A DNA stretch of 58,296 nucleotides from Eubacteriales bacterium (GTDB lineage Bacteria > Bacillota > Clostridia > Oscillospirales > CAG-272). Position 1 is the first letter of the stretch. Every line of letters starts with the position of its first letter. A program made the position numbers and the translations under genes. Location: NCBI GenBank assembly GCA_045614625.1, contig JAZLDE010000147.1, forward strand, positions 1 through 58,296, given 5' to 3'. The notes beneath the pieces were generated by a model. That model did not search any database, had not been told where the DNA came from, and saw only the letters and a program-made list of their open reading frames with translations. Below are positions 17,587-50,307 of the stretch, piece after piece.

Positions 17587-18576
17587 TTGATCGAAGTAAA
17601 ACATCTGACTAAGACGTATGGAGACCACCATGCGCTCAAGGATATCAGTTTCAAGATCGCCAACGGAAAGATTTACGGATTGCTTGGCCCCAACGGTGCG
17701 GGTAAATCCACGACAATGAATATTATGACGGGTTGTCTTGCCGCCACGGCAGGTACAGTCAAGATCAACGGCTTTGACATCTACAAGGATGCGACCGAGG
17801 CCAAGCGCCTGATCGGTTATCTGCCCGAGCAACCGCCGCTGTACGAGGACATGACGCCCGAGGAATATCTGACGTTTGTTGCTGAGGCCAAGGGGGTACA
17901 TCCCGAGCGTGTGGGCAGACAGGTCAGAGAGGTCATGGAGCAGACGAATATTACCGACATGAAGGATCGCCTGATCCGCAATCTGTCCAAGGGGTGCCGT
18001 CAGAGAGTCGGTATCGCGCAGGCGCTGCTGGGCAGTCCCGAGATCATTATTTTGGACGAGCCGACGGTCGGTCTTGACCCCAGACAGCTGGTCGAGATCC
18101 GTGAGATGGTCCGCAAGCTGGGCGATAAACACACAGTCATCATTTCCAGCCACATCCTGGCCGAGGTCAGCGAGGTGTGCGATGAGCTGCTGGTGATCGC
18201 AAACGGTGAGCTGATCGCGCAGGGCGAGCTGTCCGTGCTGGAGGCTATGCTGGGTGATACCGATACGCTGCATCTGGTCGTTCGCGGCGATGAGGCGGGC
18301 GTTCTGGCGGTTCTTTACGGCATCGTTGCCAAGGAAAATTGCACTTTGCGTTCGGCAACCAAGGAGGGCGAGGTTTCCCTCGACATATCCATTCCCCGCG
18401 ATGGCGACGTGCGTGACCGCATTTTCTTTGCTATGGCTGATCGCCGCTATGCTGTGCTGACCATGGAAATTGAGCATAAATCGCTGGAAAACGTGTTCCT
18501 TGCCTTGACCGATCGCTCGGTTGAGCAGGCCGAGCCCGAAACGCAAGAAACGGAAGAGGAGGAGCAGGAGCAATGA
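17587..18576 (+). CDS. ABC transporter ATP-binding protein
   Basis: Walker A GPNGAGKST, signature LSKGCRQR, Walker B IIILDEP. The likely start is a TTG at 17587 behind a GGAAGGGA RBS, and the track ORF extends upstream. Confidence 0.9.
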   Translation: MIEVKHLTKTYGDHHALKDISFKIANGKIYGLLGPNGAGKSTTMNIMTGCLAATAGTVKINGFDIYKDATEAKRLIGYLPEQPPLYEDMTPEEYLTFVAEAKGVHPERVGRQVREVMEQTNITDMKDRLIRNLSKGCRQRVGIAQALLGSPEIIILDEPTVGLDPRQLVEIREMVRKLGDKHTVIISSHILAEVSEVCDELLVIANGELIAQGELSVLEAMLGDTDTLHLVVRGDEAGVLAVLYGIVAKENCTLRSATKEGEVSLDISIPRDGDVRDRIFFAMADRRYAVLTMEIEHKSLENVFLALTDRSVEQAEPETQETEEEEQEQ

Positions 18577-19439
18577 TCGCTATCTTCAAGCGCGAAATGC
18601 GCTCTTACTTTCACAATGTCATAGGCTTCGTTTTCCTTTCGTTGCTGTTGTTGGCGGCGGGTGCCTTCTGTGTCATTTTCAACGTTGCTCTCGGATCGAC
18701 CAATTTTGAAGATTCACTGTACTATCTGCAGCTGGCGTTGATCATTCTTGTGCCTCTTCTGACCATGCGCGCCATGACGGAGGAGCGCAGAACCCATACC
18801 GATCAGCTGCTGTATTCCTTGCCCTTGCCGCTGTGGAAGATCGTGCTGGGCAAGTACCTTGCCATGGTCGCTATGCTGACCATCGGCTGTGTCGTCATCG
18901 CGGTGTATCCCCTCATTTTGACTATGTTCGGCATGGACAATCTGGGAACGGCCTACGCTACGCTGATTGCCTTCTTCCTGCTTGGCGCGGCACTGATCGC
19001 CTTTTGCATGTTTTTGTCCTCGCTAACGGAAAATCAGCTGGTCGCCATGATTCTTTGCATCGTTGGTGTTCTGGTCATTTTCCTTTTGGACTCCTTTGTT
19101 ACTGTCTTTGCGGCTGCAGGCGCGGTCGTGTCTTTTATCGCGCTGATCGTGCTGGCGCTGTTGGCTGCCCTTGGTGTTTACGGATTGACCAAAAACGTAT
19201 ATTTTTCCTCTTTTGTCGCGATTCTTGGCGTTCTGCCCCAAATCGTGATCTTTCTGATCAATTCCTCGCTGTATGACGGCTTGCTTTACCGCACGGTTTC
19301 CGTGTTGTCGCTGTTCTACCGCTATACCGTATTCTGCAGCGGAATTTTCGATCTGACCACTATCATTTACGACGCATCGTTTGCAGCATTGTTTATCTTT
19401 ATGACCTGGTTGGTCATGGATAAGCGCCGCCGTGCGTAA
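18573..19439 (+). CDS. ABC-2 type transporter permease
   Basis: About 6 TM helices. The ATGA overlaps the ATPase stop codon. Confidence 0.75.
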   Translation: MIAIFKREMRSYFHNVIGFVFLSLLLLAAGAFCVIFNVALGSTNFEDSLYYLQLALIILVPLLTMRAMTEERRTHTDQLLYSLPLPLWKIVLGKYLAMVAMLTIGCVVIAVYPLILTMFGMDNLGTAYATLIAFFLLGAALIAFCMFLSSLTENQLVAMILCIVGVLVIFLLDSFVTVFAAAGAVVSFIALIVLALLAALGVYGLTKNVYFSSFVAILGVLPQIVIFLINSSLYDGLLYRTVSVLSLFYRYTVFCSGIFDLTTIIYDASFAALFIFMTWLVMDKRRRA

Positions 19440-21043: not shown

Positions 21044-22177
21044 ATGGCATACAGACACGGAGTAGAACGAAACGAGCTTTTGACGCGCGAGCTGCGCGGT
21101 CGCATTGGGCTGATCACCAACCCCTCGGGCGTGGATCAAAACCTACGGGCGACGGTCGATCTCTTACACGAGAACTATGACCTGCGCGCGCTGTACGCCC
21201 CCGAGCACGGCATCCGCGGCGATGCCCAGGCGGGCGCGCATATCGAACACGATACCGACAAAAAAACGGGTCTGCCCGTCTATTCGACCTACGGAAAAAA
21301 GGACGAGAACCCCGAGGACAAGTATCGTGATATCGACACACTGGTGTTCGATATTCAGGACGTCGGCGCGCGGTTTTATACCTATATGTACACCATGACC
21401 GAGGCGATGGAGGCGTGTGCCAAGCTGGGCAAGAGGGTCGTGGTGCTTGACCGATATAATCCGTTGGGGCTTTCTCGCATGGAAGGTACGCTGCTCGACG
21501 AGAGTTTTTCCTCGTTCGTAGGCAAGTACACGCTGGCCTCGCGCTACGGCATGACCATCGGTGAGTTTGCCCGCTACGCCAACGCGGAGAAGGGAATTGG
21601 GTGCGACTTGACCGTCATCCCCTGCGAGGGACTTGACCGCCGCGCCGATTTTCGATCGTTTTCGGTGCCGTGGGTGCTGCCCTCGCCCAATTTACCAACA
21701 TATGAGTCGGCACTTGTCTATATCGGCACGGTGCTGTTCGAGGGAACCAACGTGTCCGAGGGCAGGGGAACGACCAAGCCCTTTGAGCTGATCGGCGCTC
21801 CCTTTATCGACGGCGATGCGCTGGCGGATACCATGCGGCAGATGGATTTGCCCGGTGTCAATTTCCGCCCCGCCTGCTTCACCCCAACCTTTTCCAAGTT
21901 CGCGGGCGAGCGGTGCTACGGCGTGCAGATCCACGTCACCGACGCCGATGCCTTCGAGCCCTTCCGCACGGGGCTTTTGCTGCTTGACACTATCCGTAAA
22001 AGCTATGAGCAATTCGAGTTCCGCGCCTCGTCTGGGGAGAAATGGACGATCGATCTGATCCTTGGCACGAACGCCCTGCGACAAGACGGCTTTGACGCCG
22101 AGACCTTTATTGCCGAGGAGCAGAAAAAGGTGGAGGCGTTCAAGACGAGTGTGGAGAAGTATTTTTTGTATGAGTGA
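21044..22177 (+). CDS. DUF1343 family protein (YbbC/NamZ-like exo-beta-N-acetylmuramidase)
   Basis: IGLITNPSGVDQNL...LYAPEHGIRGD is typical of DUF1343. Confidence 0.8.
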   Translation: MAYRHGVERNELLTRELRGRIGLITNPSGVDQNLRATVDLLHENYDLRALYAPEHGIRGDAQAGAHIEHDTDKKTGLPVYSTYGKKDENPEDKYRDIDTLVFDIQDVGARFYTYMYTMTEAMEACAKLGKRVVVLDRYNPLGLSRMEGTLLDESFSSFVGKYTLASRYGMTIGEFARYANAEKGIGCDLTVIPCEGLDRRADFRSFSVPWVLPSPNLPTYESALVYIGTVLFEGTNVSEGRGTTKPFELIGAPFIDGDALADTMRQMDLPGVNFRPACFTPTFSKFAGERCYGVQIHVTDADAFEPFRTGLLLLDTIRKSYEQFEFRASSGEKWTIDLILGTNALRQDGFDAETFIAEEQKKVEAFKTSVEKYFLYE

Positions 22178-22193
22178 AAAAGGAGATGAGAAC

Positions 22194-22823
22194 ATGACAA
22201 AAAACAAAAGACTTATCTTGTGCATTTTGTGCGTAGGATTGTGCTTGATTATTTATTGCGTATCATATATTGCAAAACTGAATATTTTTGTTCTATCTCC
22301 CCAAGTCGCTAAAGCGTTCACAGGCAATGATCCGGAAACTTTTTGTTCAACTAATGGCGCAGATACGACATTTTACAGAATGTTTACTTATGCCCAAGTG
22401 AAGAAAAACGGAGATTTGATCCTGGTTATGACGGATCAGCAGATCGAGGATTGGAAGAATGGCAATTTCTATTTGCAATTGCTGCAGAAAATAGTAGGAA
22501 GTGAACGTCAAATTGTGACTGAGATTATTCCACCTACGGATCCTGTTTCGGAAATTATTTATGAAAAAGCCGACACTGTGTGCGGATATGAAATTTCAGA
22601 AGACTACACTCAGGTATATGCAGACCCCGGAGATAGTACGTTCTTATATTTTGGATTCGTTCCGCATGCGTGCTTAGCCATGCAGGTTTTGTCCGGAAAG
22701 CCGAGTGATGAAATCAGCTATACGTTTATTGAATACGATGAGGAAGGAAATATCGTAGAGCAGTTTGTTTGGCCGGATGATTTTCTTGATCAAACAGACG
22801 ATGAATCAACAAAAAACGATTAA
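22194..22823 (+). CDS. Hypothetical signal-anchored protein (AT-rich orphan)
   Basis: An ATG at 22194 follows an AAAGGAG RBS. The N-terminal hydrophobic helix is LILCILCVGLCLIIYC. I recognise no family. Confidence 0.5.
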   Translation: MTKNKRLILCILCVGLCLIIYCVSYIAKLNIFVLSPQVAKAFTGNDPETFCSTNGADTTFYRMFTYAQVKKNGDLILVMTDQQIEDWKNGNFYLQLLQKIVGSERQIVTEIIPPTDPVSEIIYEKADTVCGYEISEDYTQVYADPGDSTFLYFGFVPHACLAMQVLSGKPSDEISYTFIEYDEEGNIVEQFVWPDDFLDQTDDESTKND

Positions 22824-27866: not shown

Positions 27867-27895
27867 TTGACACAGCGGGCATGCCGTGCTACAAT
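27867..27895 (+). promoter_or_regulatory. Putative sigma-70 promoter ahead of the small ORF and the XRE gene
   Basis: TTGACA-17 nt-TACAAT. Confidence 0.45.
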
Positions 27896-27972
27896 ATAAC
27901 CGTACCGATCTTCACGTACTGCAGACGGGTTGAGAGGTGCGGTTATTATTTTGAATGAAAGGAGGCGAGGAT

Positions 27973-28035
27973 ATGTTTTTTGGCGCATTTTGTAAAAATG
28001 CCGTATCACTCGCCGGTACTGCGCTCTTGGCGTGA
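27973..28035 (+). CDS. Candidate 20-aa hydrophobic micro-ORF (MFFGAFCKNAVSLAGTALLA)
   Basis: A strong RBS (GAAAGGAGGCGAGGAT) precedes the ATG, and a 9-bp hairpin follows (GGGCTGTGC...GCACAGCCC). There is no homology evidence. Confidence 0.25.
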   Translation: MFFGAFCKNAVSLAGTALLA

Positions 28036-28165
28036 GCGCGAGTGATAGCGGGGCTGTGCTGTCTGCGGATGGCACAGCCCTGCCATACAGAAAACCTGTG
28101 TGCGGCGAGATTGGGTGAGGCCTTTTTAGGCGGAGCCGAATACCATCGACACGGGAGGAGAACGT

Positions 28166-28417
28166 TTGAGTATTCCATTGGGAGTCAACATCAAAAAACT
28201 GCGATTGGCGACCGGCATGACCCAGAGACAGCTGGCTTATCAGCTGCGCATCAGCGTGCAGGCGGTGTCGAAATGGGAGCGGGGCTTGACCTATCCCGAC
28301 GTTACGCTGCTTTTGCCCATTGCAGAACTGTTTGGCGTGACGCTGGACGAGCTGTTCGGGAGACATAAGGCGGCTGGTACGGATACGAGCCGCAGTACAC
28401 GCTTTCACACATCATAA
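28166..28417 (+). CDS. XRE-family helix-turn-helix transcriptional regulator (83 aa)
   Basis: IKKLRLATGMTQRQLAYQLRISVQAVSKWERG is an HTH_3 signature. A TTG start follows a GGGAGGAG RBS. Confidence 0.8.
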   Translation: MSIPLGVNIKKLRLATGMTQRQLAYQLRISVQAVSKWERGLTYPDVTLLLPIAELFGVTLDELFGRHKAAGTDTSRSTRFHTS

Positions 28418-28424
28418 AAATCAA

Positions 28425-28456
28425 GGTCACACGATATTGTACGTGTGACCTTTTTT
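28425..28456 (+). terminator. Rho-independent terminator, copy 1 of a duplicated hairpin
   Basis: GGTCACACG-atattgta-CGTGTGACC followed by TTTTTT. Confidence 0.7.
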
Positions 28457-28588
28457 GTAAATCGAAAACCCCTGCGGTTATGGACTTATGACCTGAAATA
28501 CACCTCGAAAAATATTTTTGCGCGTTGGGATATTTCTACAAAAACAAACACGATTTTTATTCAAAATGCCGATTTTTTATTTTACATA

Positions 28589-28617
28589 TTGACAGATTGA
28601 ACAACACGCTGTATAAT
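28589..28617 (+). promoter_or_regulatory. Consensus sigma-70 promoter, copy A of a duplicated 46-nt promoter/operator block (28580-28625)
   Basis: TTGACA-17 nt-TATAAT. The block is 41/46 identical to 35181-35226 by hand alignment. Confidence 0.6.
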
Positions 28618-28741
28618 GTGGACGTGAAATCCGAAAGTGGAACATGGCAAAATGTCCGGACAAATGTAAAAATGTCGGGTTTGTATGCCACATGCCAACT
28701 GCGGACGATGTATTGAATGAACAACGAAAAGGAGTAAGGAC

Positions 28742-30022
28742 ATGAGCGAAGGCACGACGTATGAAGTGCAGTCTCAGGAGTTGGAAGCAACTTCTGAAAA
28801 TCCCATCGTAACTCAAGAGCCGGATGGCATCATAGCTGAGTCCTCGATGGAAAACCAAGACGGAGCGGAATTGGAAAAATCAGATTCCGGATCGTCCAAG
28901 AAAATTGCGTGGAAAAGCGTATGGACGAAGATCTTGGCATTTATCCAAACCAACATATTCACTTCCATGACCTGCAAGATCTCATTGCTTGTGTTGGAGG
29001 CTCTTATGTTACTGCTTTGCGGCATCCAGCTTGTAAAGTGGTGCTTGTCAATCAAAGATACGTACATGAATTATTGGGACGCAATTCGAACGTTTGATAT
29101 TGTCAATATCGTCACGATGGTTCTAATGTTGATTTTTGCAATCACGCTGTTCGCTAAGGTGATTGAAGGTATCGTCGGCATGATTAAGAAGGGACGAGAG
29201 GCCAGCTTTGCATCGGTTGCTACGCTGTTTGCTTTTGCCATCTTCTCCATGTTTATGACTCATCTGTTTGACGGAAAGGAACTTTTGATTTCGTCGTTTG
29301 CTTATGCACCGATGCTCAAAGCGCTTGCATGGATTGTGGGGATATACACCGTGATCAGATTGCTGTTCAAGGACTTTGGTGCACGAGTCTGGTCGGTCTT
29401 CTTCAGCATTGGCGGTATCATTCTCGCCATTGTGATGTTTATGCAGAACGTGGGTGATTTTGCTTTGATCACTTTTGAGACCCTCGGTGAATCGGTTTCG
29501 TTTTCTTTCTCGGAGCTGAATGTAATTGAATTTTTCAAGATCCTTTTCTTTGATGGCAGTTTGACGGATGCCAACGGGGCGGAGCTCTTGCTTATCGCCG
29601 AATTTGCTCTCTCTGATCTCGGTATCGGTGAGATGGGCCTGTTGCTTTGTACGTTGATGCAGATTATTGCAATGGTGGTTGCGGACTTGTTGCCCTATGC
29701 CGCGCTGTCGCTGATGGGATATTTCCTGTACGGCTTGACTTGCAGAAATTACGTTCAGTATTATCAGCTGCGCGCCGCTCAAAAGGTGGCGACCACCATG
29801 CTGGTGATCTCCGTGATGTCGATGGCTTCAACGATCGCCTTGAGCGTATTGGCAAGCAGAGCAGGGGGACTGACGATTACAGTTGATTACGTTAGAGCAA
29901 CCTTGACGATTGTCCTGGACGTCGCTATGATCGTTGTGACCGCATTGCCGTGGAAGTTCTACAATATCACCTACAACCGTCATTTCGCGGAATATAAGAA
30001 GAATGGAGGAGACTACGTATAA
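28742..30022 (+). CDS. Hypothetical polytopic membrane protein (426 aa) with an acidic N-terminal tail
   Basis: An AAAGGAG RBS precedes the ATG. There are about 8-9 hydrophobic helices and no recognisable family. The stop overlaps the next gene's ATG (TAATG). Confidence 0.7.
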   Translation: MSEGTTYEVQSQELEATSENPIVTQEPDGIIAESSMENQDGAELEKSDSGSSKKIAWKSVWTKILAFIQTNIFTSMTCKISLLVLEALMLLLCGIQLVKWCLSIKDTYMNYWDAIRTFDIVNIVTMVLMLIFAITLFAKVIEGIVGMIKKGREASFASVATLFAFAIFSMFMTHLFDGKELLISSFAYAPMLKALAWIVGIYTVIRLLFKDFGARVWSVFFSIGGIILAIVMFMQNVGDFALITFETLGESVSFSFSELNVIEFFKILFFDGSLTDANGAELLLIAEFALSDLGIGEMGLLLCTLMQIIAMVVADLLPYAALSLMGYFLYGLTCRNYVQYYQLRAAQKVATTMLVISVMSMASTIALSVLASRAGGLTITVDYVRATLTIVLDVAMIVVTALPWKFYNITYNRHFAEYKKNGGDYV

Positions 30023-32049
30023 TGGCACTGTTACAATGTGAAATGTGTTGCGGCGAGCTTGAAATATCCCCCGACAAGTCCGTCGGCGTATGTAAATATT
30101 GCGGTTCAACGTTTACGATTCCCAAAGAGATCGAGAAAAAGGGAAATCTGTTCAACCGCGCCAATTACCTCAGACAAAATTGTAATTTCGATAAGGCAAT
30201 CGGCGTATACGAGTCTATTCTGGCGGAAAACTGCGAGGATGCGGACGCGCTGTGGGGCCTGGTGCTCTGCCGCTATGGTATTGAGTTCGTAGAAGATCCC
30301 AAAACGGGCAGCCGTATCCCCACCTGCCACAGAGCCAGCCGTACGTCCATTCTTCTGGACCCCGATTTCAAGGCTGCACTGAATTTTGCGGATGCGGAAA
30401 AGGCAGCGGTATATAAAGAAAACGCAACGCGCATCGACCAGATTCAAAAAGCGATTTTGAGTTTGTCCGACACGCAGGAAAAATACGAGGTCTTCATCTG
30501 CTATAAGGAGACGGACGAGAATGGTGAGCGTACGATCGATAGCGTTTTGGCGCAGGAGCTGTACAATGAGCTGAAAAAAGAAAAGATCCGCACCTTTTTT
30601 GCAAGAAAAACGCTGGAGGGAAAGGTCGGCTCCAGCTACGAGCCTATCATTTATTCTGCCCTGACCAGCGCAAACGTTATGATCGTTCTGGGTACCAAGC
30701 CCGAATACTTTGAGGCAACTTGGGTCAAGAACGAATGGAGCAGATATCTGGATTTCATGCAGGACAGTAGTGATAAGCATCTGATCCCTGCGTACAAGGG
30801 CATGTCGGCTTATCAGCTTCCCGAAGAGTTCGCAGCGATTCAGGCGGTCGATATGTCGCGCATCGGCTTTATGCAGGATTTGTGCGACGGTGTCAAAAAG
30901 CTGCTTCGTAAAAATGAAACCGAGCAGAATAATGGTTCCACCATTTCCAAGGAGAGCTTGTATTCACGCGCAATGGTCTTTTTGGGCAATCGTGAGTTCT
31001 ATAAGGCAGTCGATTACTTTGAAAAGGTACTGGATATTGACCCGCAGTATGCTCGTGCGTATTGGGGACAGCTGTTGGCTTCCTATCAGTGCGTAACCAA
31101 TAATGAGCTGATCAACTGTACCGCGGACGACTGGACTGAGGACGCCAGACTGAACAACGCGCTGCAATTTGCCAACCCCGAGGAAAAAGCCATCTATGAG
31201 GATACGCTGGTGAAGCGTACGGCCAACTTCAAAAAGCTGGCAAACGCAGCGCTTGAGAGTAAAGATTACGCGAAGTGCATTGGCTGGTGTGACAAATTTA
31301 TCAAGCAGAATTCCGGCGACGGAAGCGTTTGGTGGATTCGTCTGCTGGCGGTTCACAATTCTTGCAATTCCAACGAACTGTATCAGCATTGCTTGAAAGA
31401 GGTAGTGTCCATTCTTGATATGCCCGAGTACAAATATGCGCTGGAATATTCCATTCAGGAAGAGAGCGCGATGTACGAAAAGACGGCGCAAAAGATTGAG
31501 CGTGCCGTGCTTGAAAAGCGCAGATCCCTTGTCTACGACGATTGCCACGCGTTTATGTGCGCATCGATCGAATCGATCAAACGCAGAAGACAGGACGGTG
31601 TTTCGGGACAGTGGCGCAACTACGAAGCGGAAGCTGCCGCTTTCGCAACGCTGCGCTCTTATAACGGCAAATTCTGTAGAAACAATATTTTTGCTATGTT
31701 GATCCAGCTGATGCTTTGGGGCATTTGTGCCTTCTTCACGGCCATGATTGCGGCTGATGGCGACGAAACCACGTTCCGTACGGCGTTTTTGACAGTGTTC
31801 GGTTTGGCAGTAGGAATTGCTTGGATCGTTAAGCTTTCCAAGTATTCGCACAAGTCCAAGAGAATTCCTTATTTGATGAAGGAATGTGAAAACATAGGTC
31901 GAAGACTGGAAGGCGACAAGGAAAACGTTGCATACGCCAACGCCCGCGAGGCCAAGGCTGAAAAGCTGCTGGAGGAATTTCTGGCGGATCCCTCGATTTC
32001 CGTGGAGGATATTGAGAAAAAGCGAGCCGAATTTGAAGCAATACTTTGA
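30022..32049 (+). CDS. Zn-ribbon / TPR-like / TIR domain protein with a C-terminal TM hairpin (675 aa)
   Basis: An N-terminal CEMCC...CKYCG ribbon is present. The TIR_2-like block is YEVFICYKETDENG...ANVMIVLGTKPEYFEATWVKNEWSRYL. TPR-like helices flank it. Two TM helices lie at about aa 556-605. Confidence 0.8.
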   Translation: MALLQCEMCCGELEISPDKSVGVCKYCGSTFTIPKEIEKKGNLFNRANYLRQNCNFDKAIGVYESILAENCEDADALWGLVLCRYGIEFVEDPKTGSRIPTCHRASRTSILLDPDFKAALNFADAEKAAVYKENATRIDQIQKAILSLSDTQEKYEVFICYKETDENGERTIDSVLAQELYNELKKEKIRTFFARKTLEGKVGSSYEPIIYSALTSANVMIVLGTKPEYFEATWVKNEWSRYLDFMQDSSDKHLIPAYKGMSAYQLPEEFAAIQAVDMSRIGFMQDLCDGVKKLLRKNETEQNNGSTISKESLYSRAMVFLGNREFYKAVDYFEKVLDIDPQYARAYWGQLLASYQCVTNNELINCTADDWTEDARLNNALQFANPEEKAIYEDTLVKRTANFKKLANAALESKDYAKCIGWCDKFIKQNSGDGSVWWIRLLAVHNSCNSNELYQHCLKEVVSILDMPEYKYALEYSIQEESAMYEKTAQKIERAVLEKRRSLVYDDCHAFMCASIESIKRRRQDGVSGQWRNYEAEAAAFATLRSYNGKFCRNNIFAMLIQLMLWGICAFFTAMIAADGDETTFRTAFLTVFGLAVGIAWIVKLSKYSHKSKRIPYLMKECENIGRRLEGDKENVAYANAREAKAEKLLEEFLADPSISVEDIEKKRAEFEAIL

Positions 32050-32061
32050 TAAACACCAAAA

Positions 32062-32093
32062 GGTCACACGGCGTAAGTCGTGTGACCTTTTTT
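32062..32093 (+). terminator. Rho-independent terminator, copy 2 of the duplicated hairpin
   Basis: GGTCACACG-gcgtaagt-CGTGTGACC followed by TTTTTT. The stem is identical to the one at 28425-28450. Confidence 0.7.
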
Positions 32094-32179
32094 GCTAAAA
32101 ACTGCCGAGGCGCGCTTCGTTTATCCCATGCCAATCAAGGAATAATAATGGTACGATTGATTTGACACAGGAGAAAACG

Positions 32180-34504
32180 ATGAACAAAAACAAAAATGCG
32201 CAAGCGCGACACACGTCGCCCGCGCGCCAAAGAAAAAGCCTTGGCGTTACGCTGCTTAACGCCGCTTTGATGATCCTGGCCATTGGTATGACGCTTGCCG
32301 TGCTGATTGGCATTGCCGTGGCGTGGTACGCGGAGAAGAATATAACGCCGGATTTCGATGAAACACAGCTGAGCGCCGTCACAGGCGCAGGCGCATCCCA
32401 GTTGTATTATTACGACTTCGAGGATCGGTCCTCTCGTGCGGGAACAAGGATAGAATTGCCCGACGGCACGCTGGACGGTGGGGAGCACGTCATTCCCGTG
32501 ACTTATGCCGAGTGTCCGCAAGCGTTGATCGATGCCTTTGTTGCCATCGAGGATCAGCAATTCTGGCAGCATCATGGTGTCAACTGGGGGAGGACGCTCT
32601 CGGCGGGACTTAACTATTGCCTTGGTTACACCCGCCATTTCGGTGCGTCGACCATTACACAGCAGCTCGTCAAAAATCTGTCGGGCAAGAATGACTATTC
32701 CATTCATCGCAAGGTACAGGAAATGTGCTGGGCCAACGATCTGGAGAACCGTAGTACCAAGGAGGAGATCATGGAGCGATATCTGAATATCATCAATCTG
32801 TCCCAAGGATGCTATGGCGTGGGCGCGGCGGCCGAGCGTTTCTTTGGTAAGACGGTAAGCGAGCTGACGCTTGCCGAGTGCGCCGCCATCGCGGGCATTA
32901 CCAACAATCCCTCCTATTACGATCCCGTCCGCTTTCCGGCCCATGCCAAGGCGCGACGTGATCTCATTCTCTCCGAGATGCTGGAGCAGGGGTATATCGA
33001 TGAGGCGGCCTATACCGAGGCGGTCGCGCAGGAGCTGTCCTTGCGCGAGCAGGCGGGGCGGGGCAAAACACCCGTTTATTCGTGGTACGTCGATATGGTC
33101 ATCGAGGACGTCATCCGCGATCTTTGCGCCGAATATGGGTACACGCGCGAGTACGCCAACCGCTTGCTCTGGAACGGGGGCTTGCGCATTGAGTTGGCGA
33201 TGGATGCCTCGGTACAGGAGCAAGTGGAACAGTATTATGCCGACGCTTCGCATTTCCCGATTCATAAAAACGGCGAGCGGGCACAAAGCGGCATGATTGT
33301 CATCGACCCTGCCACGGGAGACATTCTCGGCGTTGCGGGAGCGGTGGGAGAAAAGACAGGTAACCGCCTGCAAAGCCACGCTACGACGGCAGTTCGTCCC
33401 GCGGCCTCGGCCATCAAGCCGTTGTCTGTGTATGCGCCCGCCCTTGAACAGGGTGAGATCACCTGGGCGAGCGTATTTGACGACGTACCCGTGACCTTTG
33501 GCAAGGACAATCGCCACCCTTGGCCGCAAAATGCCAATCGCGTATATCGTGGGTTGACCGACGTGCGCTACGCCGTGTCGCATTCGGTCAACACCGTTGC
33601 TGTGCGTGTGCTTCATAAGCTGGGACTGCGCCGTTCGTTTGATTTTCTGCACGAAACACTGGGCATGACCTCGCTCATTGAAGCGCGGACGCTGGAGGAC
33701 GGTCGGACGATCAGCGATGTTGGCGAGGCGGCGCTGGGACTTGGGCAGATGAACTTTGGCGTGACCTTGCGCGAACTGACAGCGGGCTATAGTGCCCTTG
33801 CCAACGGTGGGGTGTATATGGAGCCGCACTCCTATTACCGCGTGATTGCTCCCGACGGAAAGGTTCTGCTCTCGCATAGCCCATCGGGCCGCTATGCCAT
33901 TAGCGAGCAGAATGCCTGCATTATGACCAAATTGCTCGAAAGCGTGGTCACGCAGGGAACGGCCAAGGGCGCACAGATACTGGGTGGGCGAGTGGCGGTG
34001 GCGGGGAAGACGGGAACGTCCAATGCTGATTGCGATCGCTATTTCATTGGCTATACGCCCAAGTATCTGGCAGGTGTTTGGTACGGCTTTGACTATCCCC
34101 AACCCATGACGGATATGAAAAGCAATCCTGCCGTCAAGATATGGAAGGACGTTATACAGCCCATCGTGGCGAAGGATCTGAAAAGAGGCGGTGCGCCGAC
34201 TAAATTTGACTTGGCACAAGGCGTCATTCGCGTCAGCTACTGCCGTGATTCGGGTTTGCGACCGACCGATGCCTGCCGTGCGGATCTGCGAGGTAATCGC
34301 ACCGCAGAGGGCTATTTCATTCAGGGAACGGAGCCGAGAAGCTATTGCGATTGCCACACCATGCGCGACTATGACAGCGAGCGAGGCGTGCTTGCTGATG
34401 AGATGACTATGCCGGAGGCGCTGCAAAAGGTGGGATATATCCGTGTCAAGCGCACCTTTCCACGTAAGGTATACGTGGCGGACGAACGGTACGTCGTCCA
34501 TTGA
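32180..34504 (+). CDS. Class A penicillin-binding protein (PBP1A family transglycosylase/transpeptidase)
   Basis: GT51 motif EDQQFWQHHG, SxxK (SAIKP), SxN (SHSVN), KTG (KTGTS). The ATG at 32180 follows an AGGAG RBS. Confidence 0.9.
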   Translation: MNKNKNAQARHTSPARQRKSLGVTLLNAALMILAIGMTLAVLIGIAVAWYAEKNITPDFDETQLSAVTGAGASQLYYYDFEDRSSRAGTRIELPDGTLDGGEHVIPVTYAECPQALIDAFVAIEDQQFWQHHGVNWGRTLSAGLNYCLGYTRHFGASTITQQLVKNLSGKNDYSIHRKVQEMCWANDLENRSTKEEIMERYLNIINLSQGCYGVGAAAERFFGKTVSELTLAECAAIAGITNNPSYYDPVRFPAHAKARRDLILSEMLEQGYIDEAAYTEAVAQELSLREQAGRGKTPVYSWYVDMVIEDVIRDLCAEYGYTREYANRLLWNGGLRIELAMDASVQEQVEQYYADASHFPIHKNGERAQSGMIVIDPATGDILGVAGAVGEKTGNRLQSHATTAVRPAASAIKPLSVYAPALEQGEITWASVFDDVPVTFGKDNRHPWPQNANRVYRGLTDVRYAVSHSVNTVAVRVLHKLGLRRSFDFLHETLGMTSLIEARTLEDGRTISDVGEAALGLGQMNFGVTLRELTAGYSALANGGVYMEPHSYYRVIAPDGKVLLSHSPSGRYAISEQNACIMTKLLESVVTQGTAKGAQILGGRVAVAGKTGTSNADCDRYFIGYTPKYLAGVWYGFDYPQPMTDMKSNPAVKIWKDVIQPIVAKDLKRGGAPTKFDLAQGVIRVSYCRDSGLRPTDACRADLRGNRTAEGYFIQGTEPRSYCDCHTMRDYDSERGVLADEMTMPEALQKVGYIRVKRTFPRKVYVADERYVVH

Positions 34505-34557: not shown

Positions 34558-35097
34558 ATGAATATGAAAAAACAATGGGAAGCTTGGTGCCGCCGGATAC
34601 GATGCGCGATGAACGAATGCTCCGCGGTCGCGCTGCTGATCGGCGCGGCGGCGCTCATGCTGTGCGGCGTGATCGTGCGTGGGGTGTGCGGCAGTCCCTA
34701 TCAAAGCGGTATGATGATGTATTTCGGACGCGTCATTCTGCCCGTGTGGCTGATGACACTGCTTTGGATGACCTGGTACGCGCTGCTCGGCGCTGCCTTT
34801 GCCCGCGTGATGTTCGATCGGCGGTGCGACGGATACACCGAGACCGTCAAATATCGGGGCGGCATGGCCTATCTTGCTATGCTGTTTCTCGGCTTTTTGT
34901 GGTATCCCATCTTCTTTTGCGCGGCGCGTCCCTTTCTCGGCGCGCTCATCGTGCTAGGCGTACTGATTTTATGTGTCATCACAGCGCTGTGCTATATCAA
35001 GCTGTTTCGCGGTGTGGCGTTTTTGCTGCTTTGCCACGCGGCCTTTCTTGTCTGGATGCTGATACTTAATCTGGCAATGGTATTTTATGGCGGATAA
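34558..35097 (+). CDS. TspO/MBR-like Trp-rich five-helix membrane protein (tentative)
   Basis: Size, helix layout and W/Y-rich helices (LPVWLMTLLWMTWYALLG, FLWYPIFF) resemble TspO. This is a weak assignment. Confidence 0.4.
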   Translation: MNMKKQWEAWCRRIRCAMNECSAVALLIGAAALMLCGVIVRGVCGSPYQSGMMMYFGRVILPVWLMTLLWMTWYALLGAAFARVMFDRRCDGYTETVKYRGGMAYLAMLFLGFLWYPIFFCAARPFLGALIVLGVLILCVITALCYIKLFRGVAFLLLCHAAFLVWMLILNLAMVFYGG

Positions 35098-35189
35098 TGA
35101 AAAAACGAACTGAAATTGTTCTGTTTAGACAAAAATAGTTATTTTTATGTAAAAAATATGTACAAAGGGACAAAAATGATTTTTACATA

Positions 35190-35218
35190 TTGACAGATTT
35201 AACAACATGTTGTATAAT
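35190..35218 (+). promoter_or_regulatory. Consensus sigma-70 promoter, copy B of the duplicated block (35181-35226), with an embedded 12-bp palindrome
   Basis: TTGACA-17 nt-TATAAT. The palindrome ACAACATGTTGT at 35202-35213 spans the spacer/-10 junction. Confidence 0.6.
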
Positions 35219-35252
35219 ATGGGCGTCACAAGCAAGAAAGAGAGGTGTTGTG

Positions 35253-35507
35253 ATGAACTATCCAAACGAAAAGCGGGATGAATATATTGAAAAGTTGACA
35301 GAAGAGCTTCCTGTTCTTCGCGCAAGACTTCACATCTCGCAAGGGGAGTTAGCACGTGATGTCGGTATTTCCCGTCAGACGTATTCGCTGCTTGAAACGG
35401 GAAAGCAGAAAATGACCTGGATCACGTTCATGGCGATGATCGCTTATTTCAGCAGTCACACGAGAACTCGCAAAGATCTTAAGGCGCTTGGCCTGATCGA
35501 TGACTAA
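35253..35507 (+). CDS. XRE-family helix-turn-helix regulator (84 aa)
   Basis: LHISQGELARDVGISRQTYSLLETGKQ is an HTH_3 signature. The ATG at 35253 lies downstream of promoter B with an AGAGAGG RBS. Confidence 0.75.
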   Translation: MNYPNEKRDEYIEKLTEELPVLRARLHISQGELARDVGISRQTYSLLETGKQKMTWITFMAMIAYFSSHTRTRKDLKALGLIDD

Positions 35508-35541: not shown

Positions 35542-37299
35542 ATGGCTAATTTTACAATTGAATGTCCGAAGTGCGGAAGTATTAACGCAGCTTCTACGTC
35601 GCTGTTCGCAAAAAAAATGATCAAGTGTGGTACTTGCCACACGGAAATTGACGTCAAGGCCAATCGCTTGACCTCGAAGATCTGCCCTCATTGCCATAAA
35701 ACGTTTGTGTATGATCGCGCGAAGAAAAGCCATCGCGACTGCCCCTCTTGCGGCAGAAAGATCGATGCGGCACAGATTGCGACCGGTAAATACAAGTACG
35801 TAACGCTCAACTGCCCTCAGTGTGCATGCGCTATTGAAGTGGATGAAACGAAAGACACATACACCTGTCCCGTTTGCGACCATGAGCTGGACGTAAAGAA
35901 GGAAATGAGCAAGCAGGCGCTGGTGAACGATACGGGTATCAGTGTGATCCAATACGAGGGTGATAACTCCACCTTTGTTTGGAAGCATCCGATCGAGGAT
36001 TTTAATCTTGGCTCACAGCTGATTGTTCATGAATCTCAAGAGGCGGTCTTCTTCTTGAACGGACAGGCTCTGGATCTGTTCGGTCCCGGCCGTTATACCT
36101 TGGATACGGAAAATCTTCCGATCCTCAAAAAGGTATATAATCTTCCCGAGGGCTCGCAGACCCCCTTCCATGCAGAGGTCTATTATATCAATAAGACGAC
36201 GCAGATGGGTATGAAGTGGGGAACCGATTCCCGCGTCAGATTTGTCGATCCCAAGACGGGCATTCCGTTAGACATCGGTGCATCGGGCGAGCTGAACATT
36301 TGCGTCGAGGATTCCCGCAAGTTGCTGAACAAGCTGGTTGGCACGACGAGCGGATTGACCAACAAGGATGTGCTTTGCGCTACCTCGGATGCCGATGGTA
36401 ACGTTCACAGAACGCTGCAGAGCTATTTCCGTGCTCCGCTGGTTACAACAGTCAAGTCCTACCTTGCCACCGTTATCCGCGAGCGCCAGTTGAATATCTT
36501 TGAGTTGGATGCTCACTTGAACGATATCTCCCGCGATCTGAGAGACAAGATCTCGCCACAGTTTGAGGAATACGGCTTGTCGATTCCCGAGTTCTACGTC
36601 ATGCGCATCGGCCTGCCCGAAGATGACGAAAACCTCAGAAGCATCAAGAGACTGATCTCCGAGGCATATCTGGGTGTTCGCGAAGAGGAAGTCAAGAGCA
36701 GCATCGCAGAGGCTGCTCGCCAGAGAAAGATCATTGAGGCACAGACCGAAGCTCAACTTGAGGCAATTCGTGCACAGGGTGCGGCAGAAGCACAGCGCGC
36801 CGTTGGCTTGGCAGAGGCTGATGTCATGAGAGCTAAGGGTTATTCTCAGAAGGACGTGCTGGATGCAGAGGTTCAGAAGGCATATGCCGAGGGCATGGGC
36901 AATCTGGGCAGCGTCGGTGGCAACGGCGGCAGCGCCGGTAGCGGATTTGCGACGGATCTGGTTGGCATGATGGCCGGCATGAAGATGGCAGAGACCATGA
37001 TTGGCAAGATGGACGGTGTGATGGCCGGCGGCGCAGCTGTGGCTCCCAAAACCGAGGCTCCTTCTGCGGCAAGCTGGACCTGCTCTTGCGGTGAAACGGG
37101 CAATACTGGAAAATTCTGCATGAACTGCGGCAGTGCAAAACCGGAACTTTGGACTTGCTCTTGCGGTCATGCGGGCAATAAGGGTAAATTCTGTGAGGAA
37201 TGCGGCAGCCCGCGTGTTGCCCCCTCTTGGGATTGTGAGTGCGGTCAAAAGGGAAATACCGGCAAATGCTGCCCTGAATGCGGCGCAAAGCGTCCTTAA
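35542..37299 (+). CDS. SPFH (Band_7_1, YdjI/COG4260-like) protein with three N-terminal and three C-terminal zinc ribbons (585 aa)
   Basis: The SPFH core reads LIVHESQEAVFFLNGQALDLFGPGRYTLDTENLPIL...KWGT...EEYGLSIPEFYVMRIGLPED. A coiled Ala/Gln/Glu segment follows. The 3x CxxC-x(15-17)-CxxC units are N-terminal, and the 3x WxCxCG-x5-GKxCxxCG units are C-terminal. Confidence 0.85.
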   Translation: MANFTIECPKCGSINAASTSLFAKKMIKCGTCHTEIDVKANRLTSKICPHCHKTFVYDRAKKSHRDCPSCGRKIDAAQIATGKYKYVTLNCPQCACAIEVDETKDTYTCPVCDHELDVKKEMSKQALVNDTGISVIQYEGDNSTFVWKHPIEDFNLGSQLIVHESQEAVFFLNGQALDLFGPGRYTLDTENLPILKKVYNLPEGSQTPFHAEVYYINKTTQMGMKWGTDSRVRFVDPKTGIPLDIGASGELNICVEDSRKLLNKLVGTTSGLTNKDVLCATSDADGNVHRTLQSYFRAPLVTTVKSYLATVIRERQLNIFELDAHLNDISRDLRDKISPQFEEYGLSIPEFYVMRIGLPEDDENLRSIKRLISEAYLGVREEEVKSSIAEAARQRKIIEAQTEAQLEAIRAQGAAEAQRAVGLAEADVMRAKGYSQKDVLDAEVQKAYAEGMGNLGSVGGNGGSAGSGFATDLVGMMAGMKMAETMIGKMDGVMAGGAAVAPKTEAPSAASWTCSCGETGNTGKFCMNCGSAKPELWTCSCGHAGNKGKFCEECGSPRVAPSWDCECGQKGNTGKCCPECGAKRP

Positions 37300-37327: not shown

Positions 37328-38047
37328 ATGGCACAGAAAAAAGAAAAATTATTTGGATTGCTCTGGGCGATTCTGTTTCTGTTGTATAACGGTGTCGTTG
37401 CGGCGGTTTTAATGATGTCCGATCTTGCTGCTTTAACCCCTTCGTTCTGGGTGGCTTTGGTATTTGCTGAAATTTCGCTTTTGGCACTGTTGGTTACGTT
37501 GCTGGCGCTTGGAAAAACGCTCACCGTACTCAGAGACTGGTTCTTTGGCTTCCCGATCCTTCGTCATTGTGCGCTGTACCTACTACTTACGATGGTTGCT
37601 TCCGGTTTGTTTATGGGCTTCCAGGATCGCGTTGTGTGGGGCATTGTGTTGGCAGTGCTGCTGCTGTTGCTGGCGGTGTACTTGCTGTTCGCACTCTCCT
37701 GCCTGATCGCCAAGCATACGGTTCAGGATATCGATGCTGGGATCAAGGAGAAGCGTCTTTTCATTGATTTGCTGCGTGTTGATGCCGAAATGCTTTGCGA
37801 ATACTGTGAGGATGCTGAGGCAAAGAAATCGTTTTCGAAGTATGCTGAAGCCGTTCGCTTCAGCGATCCCATGAGCAATGAAGCGCTGTTTGAACTGGAA
37901 AAGGAGATTCAGTTTGAAACCTCGAATGCCATGGATGCACTCAAGCAGGGCAATTTGTCGGATGCGCTGATTCATTGCGATCAGGCATCGAAGTTGCTTG
38001 CCGAGAGAAACAAAAAGTGCAAGGCTCTTAAGGGTCTGCGCGAATAA
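37328..38047 (+). CDS. Hypothetical membrane protein (239 aa; about 4 TM helices plus a helical cytoplasmic tail)
   Basis: An AAGGAG RBS is present. Hydrophobic helices cover aa 8-135, followed by a charged helical C-terminus. I recognise no family. Confidence 0.65.
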   Translation: MAQKKEKLFGLLWAILFLLYNGVVAAVLMMSDLAALTPSFWVALVFAEISLLALLVTLLALGKTLTVLRDWFFGFPILRHCALYLLLTMVASGLFMGFQDRVVWGIVLAVLLLLLAVYLLFALSCLIAKHTVQDIDAGIKEKRLFIDLLRVDAEMLCEYCEDAEAKKSFSKYAEAVRFSDPMSNEALFELEKEIQFETSNAMDALKQGNLSDALIHCDQASKLLAERNKKCKALKGLRE

Positions 38048-38063
38048 TCGAATAAAGTAAAAA

Positions 38064-38095
38064 ACATCCGATCTGTTGTGGATCGGATGTTTTTT
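38064..38095 (+). terminator. Rho-independent terminator of the HTH-SPFH operon
   Basis: ACATCCGATC-tgttgtg-GATCGGATGT followed by TTTTT. Confidence 0.75.
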
Positions 38096-38136
38096 GCTGA
38101 TCATTTTAAGCCTTGAACGGCCGTTTCCAATGGAAT

Positions 38137-38165
38137 TTGACAATTCCTTGCTTGTCGTGTATAAT
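38137..38165 (+). promoter_or_regulatory. Consensus sigma-70 promoter of the sigma-fusion gene
   Basis: TTGACA-17 nt-TATAAT. Confidence 0.55.
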
Positions 38166-38262
38166 AAAAACGAAAAAATTCCATTCCCCCCAACCTTGTC
38201 GCCCTTTTTGCCGTCTTATAGACAGCAACTTGCAAGATGCACGACAAAGAAAGGAAAATTTT

Positions 38263-41200
38263 ATGGCAAAGCTGAAGTATTTGGAGCACACGGACGAGAT
38301 ACTGGTGGCCCTGACGCTGTCGGGAGATCAGGATGCCTACGAGGCGTTGGTCGCGCGATACGAGAGGTCGGTGCTGGCTACCGCACGCCGTATCACGCAC
38401 GACGAATATCTGGCCGAGGATGCCTCGCAGGAGGCATTCGTGTCGGCGTGGATCAAGCTGGACTGTCTGCGCGAGCCCGCCCGTTTTGGCGCGTGGGTGC
38501 GCCGCATTGCCAAAAACTGTGCCGTCAATATCGTCACCCGTCTGCGCGAGTACGTCAGCTACGATGTGCTGGAAAATGCCGTTCATGCAGGCAACTGCGA
38601 CATTGCCGAGGAGAACGAGGACGAGCAAGGAGAGTATATTGCGCTACTACACGAGAGCATCGGCAAGTTACCCGCAAGAGTGCGCGAGATCATCACCCTT
38701 CATTATTTTGAGGGACTGTCCGTTGCCGATATTGCGACGCGACTTGGACTTGCTGTGGGCACGGTCAAGTGGCAGCTACACGACGGCAGAGAGCGCATCC
38801 GAAAAGAAATGGGTGTTATGGAAAAGAAAGTGGATAAAACGCTGGTCGAGCGCGTCATGAAGGAAGTAGAGGAGCTCAAGTTGTGGGGGCTCAAAAACGA
38901 TAAGACGGGCTTTTCCGAGGCGTATGAGAAAACGCTCAAGGCGGTGGAGGAGCTGCCCGAGTGTGGGGAAAAGGATCACGCCATGGCCGACGTGCTCATG
39001 CGGGGCTTTTGGTGGCTGCCCGGGAAGAGAAACGACGAGCTGCTTGCCCGCATCAAAGAATACGCGCTCAAAGGACACAACGACGAGGTCATGGAGAGCG
39101 TATGCGCGGCCGAGGATTCAAAAATGTGGGGCGATCGCCGCATCCCATGGATACGCGACACGCAGATCCCTTACCTTGAGAAGCATGGTTTTGTTAAGGC
39201 GTTGGGCAGAGAATGGTTTTGGTTGGGGCATGCGTATTTCAGAAAAGGGCAGACTCACGAGGGCTTTGCCGCCCTTGACAAGGTGTTGGAGATCTTGACC
39301 CCAAAAGAGGTATACTATGCCAACGCGCTGTCTGCGATACGGATCGAACGGATGCATCAAAATAAGCAGATGCAGGGCAGAGAGGAAAAATGGTATACCA
39401 TGTGCGGGGACGGCGCGCATTACCGCATCCTTGACGGCGAGCTCCGCTGCTGGAGCCGGCCGGGATATAGTGTCGGACAGCTGAGAAACGTGGTGGACGG
39501 TCAAAATATTTTCAGCCATGCTTGCCGCTGTGATAACCGATTTTTTATTCCTAATGCCGCCGTGGGGGATACGATCACGGATCAGGATTGTACGCTGACC
39601 TTCGTCGCAAAGGGCGAAACGGTAAAGACGCCGTGCGGCACGTTTGATGGCTGTGAGATGTGGGAGATCGTGAGCGAGAGTGAGATCTGCCAGACCTGGT
39701 ATGCCGATGGCGTGGGTATCGTCAAGCAGCGTATGAACACGCAGGGCGAATGGTCGGAGCGGTTGCTTAAACACTACCAAATCGTTGGCGGACAGGGGCG
39801 GATTCCCTGTGCTGCGGGCAACGTGTGGGAATACGTTGGGCATGAGGATGCGCAATACATCACGTCGGACGTGAGGTATGAGATGGTGTACAGCGACAAG
39901 GAGGGCGTCACGCTTTCGGGCTTCTTCGCCGTTGAGCGCTTGAAATATGACGAGAACAGCTGGAGCGACATGGTGCTCCAAATGCGCAGTGATTTCACAA
40001 AGATAAGCGAAGCCGGATGGGCACAGATGGTGGACGTTTCCCATGCCGTCGATCGCGCCGAGGCACTGGCCAAAACGCCCTACGAGAAGGCCTACAGCCG
40101 CGCGGCGTGTGACGTTATGCGAAGAATTTTGTCCACCGACAAAGAGATGAATCCCAAACGCACGGTCACGGGACATTGGAATGTGTTTGACGTTAAGCGC
40201 TTGACGCGGGAAAAGGGAAAGCTCCGCGAGATCTGGAATCATTACGGCACCTGCTCGTTTGCCTGGACGTGCATCGATCACAACGATGATAAGGTAGTGA
40301 TGTTCAATGACGTCTATGGCTTTTTGCAGGAAGGCGCAAACTGCCTTTGGTCGGATGATTGGAAGGACGGCTATGCCAAAACGATCGAATTTCAGCGCCA
40401 TGGATTCGTTAATCGGACACAGATCACATGCCGAAGCGTTGGACGAGTAAGTACCAAGGCGGGCGTATTTGACGATTGCCTTGAGGTTACACTGGAAATT
40501 CAAAATCCGGAAAATCGTAGCAATTATCGCTGCGGCAAAAAGACGTATACCTTTGCCCCGGGCGTGGGTATCGTCCGCTTCGTGAGCGAAGACCCAAGAA
40601 ATCATGTGACGCACGAGCTGGCAAGCTACGTCGGTACGGGCGAAGGCTATATGCCTATGCTTGATGGCATGGATCGTCGCTTTGAGGCGATCGGATTGAC
40701 GGGCGGCTACATCAGCGCTGTGGACTATGCCGTTCGTAGGCGCGGGGACGGAAGCCTTTGCCTGATCGAGGATCGCTGCGGCATCCGCGTACTACCGCCC
40801 TACGATGAGAACGATTGGCACAGCATGGTGATATATATGGGAGAGCGTGCCTTTGGCAGAAAGAATGGCGAAGCGCATTTTTACGACGTTTCGCATCTGA
40901 TGGAGCGCTGTCAAGCGCTTGCCAAAACGCCTTATGAAAAGGCACATACAAGGCTTTCCTGCGGCAGTATGCGCCGTATTCTCGAAACCGATGCCAAGTA
41001 CAATCCCGAGCGCACGCACAGCGGGCATATGGACGGATTCTGCGTTCGGTATATAGAGGAGAAGACGGGGCGCGTGGATCTTTTGGAGCAGGAGAATGAT
41101 GCGTTTGAAAACTGGAATATGCACGGTACGGGAGACTGGGGCGCGCCCATGTTCTTCAACGACGTCTACGGCATCTGGGCAGATGCTGCAAACGGCCTTT

Positions 41201-50289: not shown

Positions 50290-50307
50290 TAAGGGAGTGT
50301 AAGAAGA

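Follow-up and report, generated by a model that had tools for sequence, protein, structure and literature searches.

A 46-nt block that occurs twice in the 58,296-nt stretch of DNA analysed here (contig JAZLDE010000147.1; hereafter the window, with copy 1 denoting its upstream and copy 2 its downstream block) is, judging from its sequence, a conserved promoter-plus-control site that precedes a small regulator gene in several gut and rumen Clostridia. We consider it probable that the block is a sigma-A promoter with a built-in operator, and that the small helix-turn-helix (HTH) protein encoded directly behind copy 2, designated XRE2, is the most likely repressor of both copies; promoter activity, binding and repression are what we infer here. 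In this genome, the cassette for a membrane protein and a TIR-TPR protein behind copy 1 and the XRE2-SPFH-membrane operon behind copy 2 would most probably be under one switch.

The original prediction had proposed a duplicated 46-nt block, and a pattern search of the window returned exactly two matches, at 28580-28625 and 35181-35226, both on the + strand. The two copies were indeed identical at 41 of 46 positions, the differences being G/T, C/T, C/T, G/A and A/G, and a promoter scan confirmed that each copy holds a perfect TTGACA-17-TATAAT promoter (12/12 at 28589-28617 and 35190-35218), with an A/T-rich region upstream of the promoter hexamers. The pattern had no match in 100 dinucleotide-preserving shuffles, and a repeat finder independently gave the same pair (89% identity, 6601 nt apart). 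Outside the two hexamers, the copies agreed at 29 of 34 positions (P about 6e-12 at local base composition), and no third copy was present in the window even when 11 mismatches were allowed across the 34 specified positions. The features of the region around the two copies are as follows:

28166..28417, + strand: XRE1, an 83-aa HTH_3 protein (Pfam HTH_3, 2.6e-15, 56.6 bits against a cutoff of 23)
28423-28452: terminator separating XRE1 from copy 1 (terminator scan)
28580..28625, + strand: block copy 1, G variant (core 28581-28617; -35 TTGACA 28589-28594; -10 TATAAT 28612-28617)
28742..30022, + strand: 426-aa polytopic membrane protein, the first gene after copy 1 (from its translation)
30022..32049, + strand: TIR-TPR protein (Pfam TIR_2, 2.7e-11, and TPR)
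32060..32094, + strand: hairpin and T run terminating the membrane/TIR unit, a diverged copy (80%) of the hairpin at 28423-28457
32180-34504, + strand: PBP1A (Pfam)
34558-35097, + strand: TspO-like gene (Pfam)
35181..35226, + strand: block copy 2, T variant (core 35182-35218; -35 35190-35195; -10 35213-35218)
35253..35507, + strand: XRE2, an 84-aa HTH_3 protein (Pfam HTH_3, 29.6 bits against a cutoff of 23)
35542..37299, + strand: SPFH protein, Band_7_1 (Pfam, 3e-42)
37328..38047, + strand: mem2, a 239-aa membrane protein (no Pfam match; N-terminal half hydrophobic)
38056..38098, + strand: intrinsic terminator closing the XRE2-SPFH-mem2 unit (20-pair stem, then a T run)

The genes called in the original prediction agreed with the ORF and Pfam annotation, including the PBP1A and TspO-like genes between the two units, which have the same place in the related species L024. 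Copy 1 is separated from the 426-aa membrane gene by a 118-nt leader, and the stop of this gene overlaps the start of the TIR-TPR gene, whose product consists of an N-terminal zinc ribbon, TIR_2, TPR and C-terminal hydrophobic segments. The leader between copy 2 and the XRE2 start is about 28 nt. The SPFH protein carries N-terminal Cys-pair zinc ribbons, a Gly/Ala-rich stretch and three C-terminal zinc-ribbon repeats (CxxC), the last encoded by three tandem units of ~75 nt (37075-37286, + strand) with 59-nt cores that are 66-80% identical and with the protein pattern W.C.CG...GKFC..CG. The surroundings are core chromosome, with serC/serA-like genes upstream and LRR and URO-D genes downstream; by synteny with L024, we take the downstream ORFs at 46345-54009 to be rpoB/rpoC. 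The 426-aa membrane protein had no match in Pfam, PADLOC or NCBIfam, and PADLOC and NCBIfam assigned neither a defence family nor a named family to the membrane proteins or the SPFH protein. In the PDB there was no solved relative of the SPFH protein, and designed TPR repeats were the only matches of the TIR-TPR protein. Exact-protein look-ups of the window's own proteins gave no match.

Two minor observations concern the segment around copy 1. The two 35-nt terminator hairpins at 28423-28457 and 32060-32094, which are 80% identical (AAGGTCACACG...CGTGTGACCTTTTTTG), bracket a 3.6-kb segment made up of copy 1, the membrane gene and the TIR-TPR gene, and may be the trace of a cassette exchange; in related species, the hairpin after XRE1 differs from that of the window. 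The copy-1 leader contains a possible 33-codon upstream ORF (28645-28746, + strand; MAKCPDKCKNVGFVCHMPTADDVLNEQRKGVRT), the TGA of which overlaps the ATG of the membrane gene (ATGA), and its coding capacity is doubtful because a relative at 85% keeps the frame with 7 amino-acid changes against 4 silent ones. The 118-nt leader was no more structured than shuffled sequence (folding z-score -0.37). An Rfam search of the whole window together with a sensitive scan around copy 1 found nothing at gathering threshold, the sole match with E<1 scoring 19 bits against a gathering score of 100.

The core of the block comprises 37 nt (TTTACnTATTGACAGATTnAACAACAnnnTGTATAAT). In addition to the hexamers, conservation extends to TTTAC just 5' of the -35 (about -44 to -40), to GATTnAACAACA over the 5' two-thirds of the spacer (about -29 to -18) and to a TG abutting the -10 (at -14/-13). 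All three elements were invariant in the instances reached via protein similarity, whose flanks are unalignable, and TTGACA and TATAAT with the 17-nt spacer were also kept in 16 of 17 related instances, the exception being L019 with TATACT. It had been argued that the identity between the copies exceeds the needs of RNA polymerase, and this was borne out by two other promoters in the window (38137-38165 and 27867-27895), whose spacers and upstream parts are unlike those of the block. Since these consensus or near-consensus promoters lack the extra motif, the host RNA polymerase does not require the extra positions of the block.

The core recurred in about 17 independent contexts of other genomes, in which the flanks could not be aligned. 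In ten lineages the block was located directly upstream of an XRE2-family HTH gene, and in seven other contexts, window copy 1 among them, it preceded envelope genes without XRE2. The blocks without XRE2 (window copy 1, the small peptides behind L024:3471, and L012, L013, L014 and L016) all stood before genes for secreted or membrane products. A scan of the genome collection, for which the pattern was too strict because it specified A and G where the spacer varies, yielded a single match, in an Acutalibacteraceae MAG (L012), and a pattern scan of metagenomes yielded ten loci with mutually unrelated flanks (L013-L022). At five of the pattern-found loci the block lay right before an XRE2 homolog that was followed by SPFH (L019-L022) or TIR-TPR (L017), and at the remaining ones the genes behind it encoded unrelated proteins, secreted or membrane-bound, several of which have a zinc ribbon at the N-terminus. 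Half of the block instances were found by a pattern fixing 21 bases, so that the apparent conservation is inflated at those positions; TTTAC and the A after AACAAC, which had been left out of the search patterns, were still conserved in all pattern-found loci.

Orthologous copies of copy 1 were present in L009, L010, L011 and L015, with a positional equivalent at L024:3471. In contigs encoding a membrane protein 99% or 85% identical to that of the window, about 75 nt including the block were kept with a single change and the upstream sequence was replaced, and the order XRE1-terminator-block was kept in the window, L010 and L024. Orthologous copies of copy 2 were found in L022 and L024-L033, and homology between species starts at TTTACATA, the 5' edge of the block. 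Within this clade, both copies have RTGRGYGT 3' of the -10 in common, an element missing from more distant lineages. Viral contigs contained no block and gave one irrelevant weak HTH match only; the phage and plasmid collections gave only chance-level matches, and an origin from a phage, plasmid or vector was rejected on this ground. The block pair is not a private duplication; the two copies are members of a widespread family of putative promoter-operators.

A protein profile search with XRE2 returned 2643 matches at E<=1e-5, the best 120 of these 2643 being 57-99% identical. Contigs were fetched for five XRE2 homologs by exact protein look-up, independent of the DNA pattern, and the regions upstream of the five genes were as follows (identities are to the window XRE2):

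P0011 (L024-L033), 87%: block upstream, TTTACATATTGACAGATTTAACAACAtcgTGTATAAT
P0018 (L034-L043), 64%: block upstream, TTTACCTATTGACAGATTTAACAACAaaaTGTATAAT
P0111 (L044-L053), 57%: block upstream, TTTACTTATTGACAGATTCAACAACAaaaTGTATAAT
P0084 (L054, L055), 71%: block upstream, ATTACATATTGACAGATTTAACAACAaatTGTATAAT
P0109 (L056-L058), 68%, and 76% to the XRE2 of L019: no block, a different sigma-A-like promoter

The upstream flanks and leaders of the protein-fetched loci were otherwise unalignable. Across the nine instances that had not been chosen by pattern (two in the window, the rest reached by protein similarity), only 5-6 of the 37 core positions varied, and twelve spacer positions were invariant across lineages with downstream proteins only 57% identical. 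The block-linked XRE2 proteins were 57-87% identical, and their HTH segment GISRQTYSLxExxKQxMTW (x, variable) was almost invariant; this, together with the block upstream of the gene in ten lineages, indicates that protein and site are co-conserved. A 37-nt core that is nearly invariant where XRE2 is 57-87% identical and the flanks are unalignable, the protein-fetched loci included, argues for the shared operator and the co-regulation that had been predicted from the two copies.

In ten lineages an XRE2 gene comes immediately after the block, which makes XRE2 rather than XRE1 the likely regulator. Alternatively, the block could be the operator of another protein, either XRE1 or an unlinked lineage-wide regulator, with XRE2 merely a member of the regulon. 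We regard this as rather unlikely, although several findings are in line with it. The XRE1-terminator-block order is conserved in the window, L010 and L024, and one XRE2 homolog has no block upstream. In addition, a small dimeric HTH protein would be expected to recognise a dyad, which the block lacks. Clear dyad symmetry was not found in the block: the dyad search gave weak partial palindromes only, among them ATTnAACA-N6-TGTATAAT with 6/8 pairs, and a hand count gave 7/8 for ATTTTACA/TGTATAAT, with arms starting 31 bp apart. By eye, TTnACA-like direct repeats with an 8-nt period can be seen. More symmetry would be expected of a classical dimeric XRE operator than the block shows. However, a tblastn search of those flanks that were available for the other loci with a block revealed no homolog of XRE1, while XRE2 is immediately downstream in ten lineages, and the block does not evidently resemble the consensus sites of Rex, CcpA, CodY, LexA, PerR and Spo0A.

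Three features count against XRE2 as the presumed repressor, namely the weak dyad, the block-less homolog of L056-L058 and the lack of a sensor domain in XRE2, a protein remotely related in sequence to CylR2 and to a PbsX-family regulator (E about 1e-4 to 6e-4). The gene clusters of L001-L008, which have neither block nor XRE2, were also counted against repression by XRE2. In L056-L058, the XRE2 homolog has the same HTH residues and heads a different operon, with four small unknown proteins and a radical SAM enzyme but without SPFH. The promoter there (TTGATT-17-TATAAT) contains ACAtaaTGTAT, which may hint at a minimal ACA-N3-TGT core site.

Two other readings of the block were rejected on inspection. 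As an ECF-sigma promoter, GAAC...CGT is present in copy 1 only, with a 20-nt spacing and a G that is not conserved; as dif/Xer-like or Rex half-sites, judged against the usual consensus sites, the arms are wrongly oriented and the relevant position is variable.

The spacer sequence of sigma-70-type promoters is not normally conserved. This background bears on the improbable case that the block is an exceptionally strong promoter and nothing more, with no dedicated transcription factor and with constitutive co-expression of the units; TTTAC and the spacer would then be kept for contacts with RNA polymerase or for DNA shape, as an UP-like element and through spacer geometry. Perfect hexamers at optimal spacing, the A/T-rich upstream region and the absence of a clear palindrome all fit such a promoter. 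It would not account for the tight link to one HTH gene family, however, nor for twelve invariant spacer positions in front of proteins only 57% identical, and the two other window promoters have unrelated spacers and upstream regions. 

A promoter that matches the consensus at 12/12 positions should by itself be highly active and would call for repression, not activation, so that the conserved extra bases are most simply taken to mark a repressor site. The presence of the block before secreted and membrane genes without XRE2 has the pattern of a trans-acting regulon.

The related species L024 (a 153-kb contig; PBP1A 71% and XRE2 87% identical to those of the window) has the order XRE1-like HTH genes, PBP1A, TspO, ECF-sigma fusion, XRE2, SPFH, mem2, LRR, URO-D, S20 and rpoB. 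It has two blocks at the two positions of the window, flanking PBP1A and TspO, and one of them precedes XRE2; the arrangement around PBP1A/TspO therefore predates the split of these species. The other block, at L024:3471, follows the XRE1 ortholog and a terminator and has the same G in the variable part of the spacer as window copy 1, and it has no membrane/TIR cassette behind it. In its place are four short ORFs with good ribosome-binding sites (3585-4020), one of 15 codons and three of 28-30 codons, the latter encoding hydrophobic single-helix peptides (e.g. MKKIAVAVAILTVVLVGLKKRSALASRA), followed by a terminator and PBP1A. These small peptides behind a copy-1-type block indicate that the cargo of the first block is exchangeable. 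The ECF-sigma fusion of L024 is 851 aa long and is located on the opposite side of the XRE2-SPFH-mem2 module compared with the window.

On a further reading, the block would mark one end of a module that moves or recombines, for instance the boundary of a promoter-carrying cassette or a recombinase site, and would have been copied by cassette movement instead of being kept by regulatory selection. Between species, homology starts at the block's 5' edge. The ECF-sigma fusion gene has the XRE2-SPFH-mem2 module on one side in the window and on the other in L024, the cargo of the copy-1 block differs between species, and similar terminator hairpins flank the 3.6-kb block/membrane/TIR segment. We nevertheless consider this very improbable, as the vicinity of the copies revealed neither terminal inverted repeats nor target duplications, and no integrase or transposase, and the window is core chromosome with no match in phage and plasmid collections or viral contigs; conservation over deeply diverged lineages would in any case still require selection on the 37 nt. 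Finally, a recent local duplication or gene conversion without functional meaning, with which the RTGRGYGT common to both copies in the clade would be consistent as a mark of their common origin, is scarcely credible and is already contradicted by the comparative data, given that the same G/T variants occupy the same positions in a species with PBP1A only 71% identical and that the core is conserved far beyond the clade.

Under repression by XRE2, the protein would bind its operator at the conserved positions, occlude the -35 and the spacer, and so block RNA polymerase. Through copy 2, XRE2 would negatively autoregulate the XRE2-SPFH-membrane operon, and through copy 1, located 6.6 kb upstream, it would repress the membrane-protein/TIR-TPR cassette in parallel. 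Relief of this repression would switch on the two units simultaneously, each from a very strong promoter. Our guess at the trigger is a perturbation of the membrane or envelope, or an infection, sensed through the SPFH/membrane pair; by analogy with phage-shock logic only, this pair might sequester or inactivate XRE2 upon membrane damage.

The original prediction further suggested that the two units may be halves of one envelope-linked system. This is supported in that TIR-TPR and SPFH were found in a single operon in four other types of lineage, but each module also occurs alone (L024, for example, has no TIR cassette), and they are better described as frequently coupled modules than as obligate halves. 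Homologs of the 426-aa protein (38-39% identity) were always followed by a TIR-TPR gene (68-71% identity). In L001-L008, the membrane protein and TIR-TPR are immediately followed by an SPFH/zinc-ribbon protein in one operon. In these metagenome contigs the trio forms the tail of a long operon with type VII secretion genes (an EssC-like FtsK_SpoIIIE, three WXG100 genes and DUF4176), a PP2C phosphatase and a Ser/Thr kinase. These clusters have no block and no XRE2, and L001 is also without mem2. The remaining arrangements were block, XRE2 and directly TIR-TPR (L017); XRE2, SPFH, mem2, LGT, two small genes and TIR-TPR (L044); and XRE2, a 1588-aa TIR-TPR, a 302-aa protein, SPFH, mem2 and radical SAM (L054). 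Behind XRE2 there is usually a Band_7_1 SPFH gene and then one for a ~240-aa membrane protein: SPFH follows XRE2 in L019, L024, L034, L035, L044 and the short contigs L020-L022, and mem2 homologs (36-48% identical) directly follow SPFH in L019, L024, L034, L035 and L044. The recurring shared operons show that the TIR-TPR and SPFH modules have repeatedly been coupled at the operon level. The TIR motif DVFIxYKE...WVKNEW was conserved in all five lineages compared.

Among known systems, CylR2 at the Enterococcus faecalis cytolysin promoter and the controller C-proteins of restriction-modification systems are autoregulated repressors of the XRE/Cro-C1 type with an operator that overlaps their own promoter. 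They share with the window a small single-domain HTH protein encoded first in its operon and a strong promoter with conserved bases beyond the polymerase contacts. Unlike their sites, the block has no clear inverted repeat, is conserved nearly base for base across genera and has a second copy before an unlinked cassette; control by XRE2 is here proposed from sequence. Near-identical promoters before non-homologous genes are also known as mobile promoters (promoter propagation), which the block resembles in that the same ~37-nt promoter stands before unrelated genes within and between genomes. Its tie to one regulator family and to envelope cargo, persisting over deep divergence, points to a regulon rather than to recent copying.

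For the SPFH operon, the closest known analogue, by gene content, would be pspA-ydjGHI (samGHI) of B. subtilis, whose YdjI presumably belongs to PF13421. YdjGHI/SamGHI anchors PspA, affects peptidoglycan synthesis and has a role in envelope stress (PMC8581546; bioRxiv 10.64898/2026.02.06.704340); for YdjI, the comparison followed the description in PMC8581546. In both cases a Band_7_1 SPFH protein with C-terminal zinc ribbons has a membrane protein immediately downstream, and in the window PBP1A is adjacent. In contrast, the B. subtilis operon is led by PspA and controlled by sigma-W, whereas the window promoter is a sigma-A consensus under putative XRE-type control, the window SPFH protein has N-terminal zinc ribbons as well, and TIR-TPR is its recurrent partner. 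A PspA domain was found neither in the annotated window ORFs of 150 aa or more from 17.4 to 45.5 kb (all but 18573-19439 and 22062-22823) nor among the called genes of L024, L034, L044 and L054.

With TIR anti-phage systems such as Thoeris and the PADLOC candidate PDC-S66, the TIR-TPR protein shares a TIR_2 domain with the conserved WVKNEW glutamate region. It scored 27 bits against ThcB4 (cutoff 220) and matched PDC-S66 with an E of 1.4e-4 over the TIR domain only. The genes neighbouring TIR-TPR had no PADLOC match, and neither a ThsA-like nor any other known partner was present among them. Unlike Thoeris, the window has a zinc ribbon-TIR-TPR-transmembrane architecture encoded beside a polytopic membrane protein and linked to SPFH.

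The recurrent TIR/YdjI-like SPFH operons suggest a link between membrane-stress sensing and TIR signalling or NAD+ depletion, a link that was not described in the phage-shock and SPFH papers or the TIR-defence resources checked. More tentatively, it is possible that a cross-genus XRE2 regulon couples a membrane-anchored TIR-TPR effector of NADase type and envelope proteins to a YdjI-like SPFH scaffold, and that it serves gut and rumen Clostridia as an immune or suicide system triggered from the envelope; if true, this would be a previously undescribed system of its kind, switched on from consensus promoters once XRE2 is released. An autoregulated repressor with a small regulon is in itself an ordinary thing. 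The literature searched, where nothing was found on the motif string or on the combination of XRE, SPFH and TIR, describes neither so extreme a conservation of the site nor the putative envelope-protein regulon nor the recurrent coupling of TIR with SPFH, and these features make a worthwhile experimental target. If XRE2 binds the block, uncharacterised envelope proteins of several Clostridia would belong to one regulon defined by a single 37-nt motif, with SPFH scaffolds, zinc-ribbon membrane proteins, small membrane peptides and the TIR-TPR protein as putative members, and one repressor, one site and very strong promoters would provide a simple experimental handle. The block may also be of use in anaerobes that are genetically difficult, as a consensus promoter that can be tightly repressed.

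Several other elements of the window were noted alongside. At 27867-28165 (+ strand), a ~270-nt leader separates XRE1 from a near-consensus promoter that has an extended -10 TG (TTGACA-17-TACAAT); this leader holds a 20-codon ORF (MFFGAFCKNAVSLAGTALLA) and a GC-rich hairpin, without an Rfam match. A third perfect TTGACA-17-TATAAT promoter, whose spacer and flanks are unrelated to the block, lies at 38137-38165 (+ strand), and behind it is an ORF (38236-41655, 1139 aa) for an ECF sigma factor fused to a large C-terminal region with internal ~855-nt repeats. On the - strand, 41706-43076 is a BspA-type LRR_5 gene built of 69-nt tandem units, the position of which is conserved in L024.
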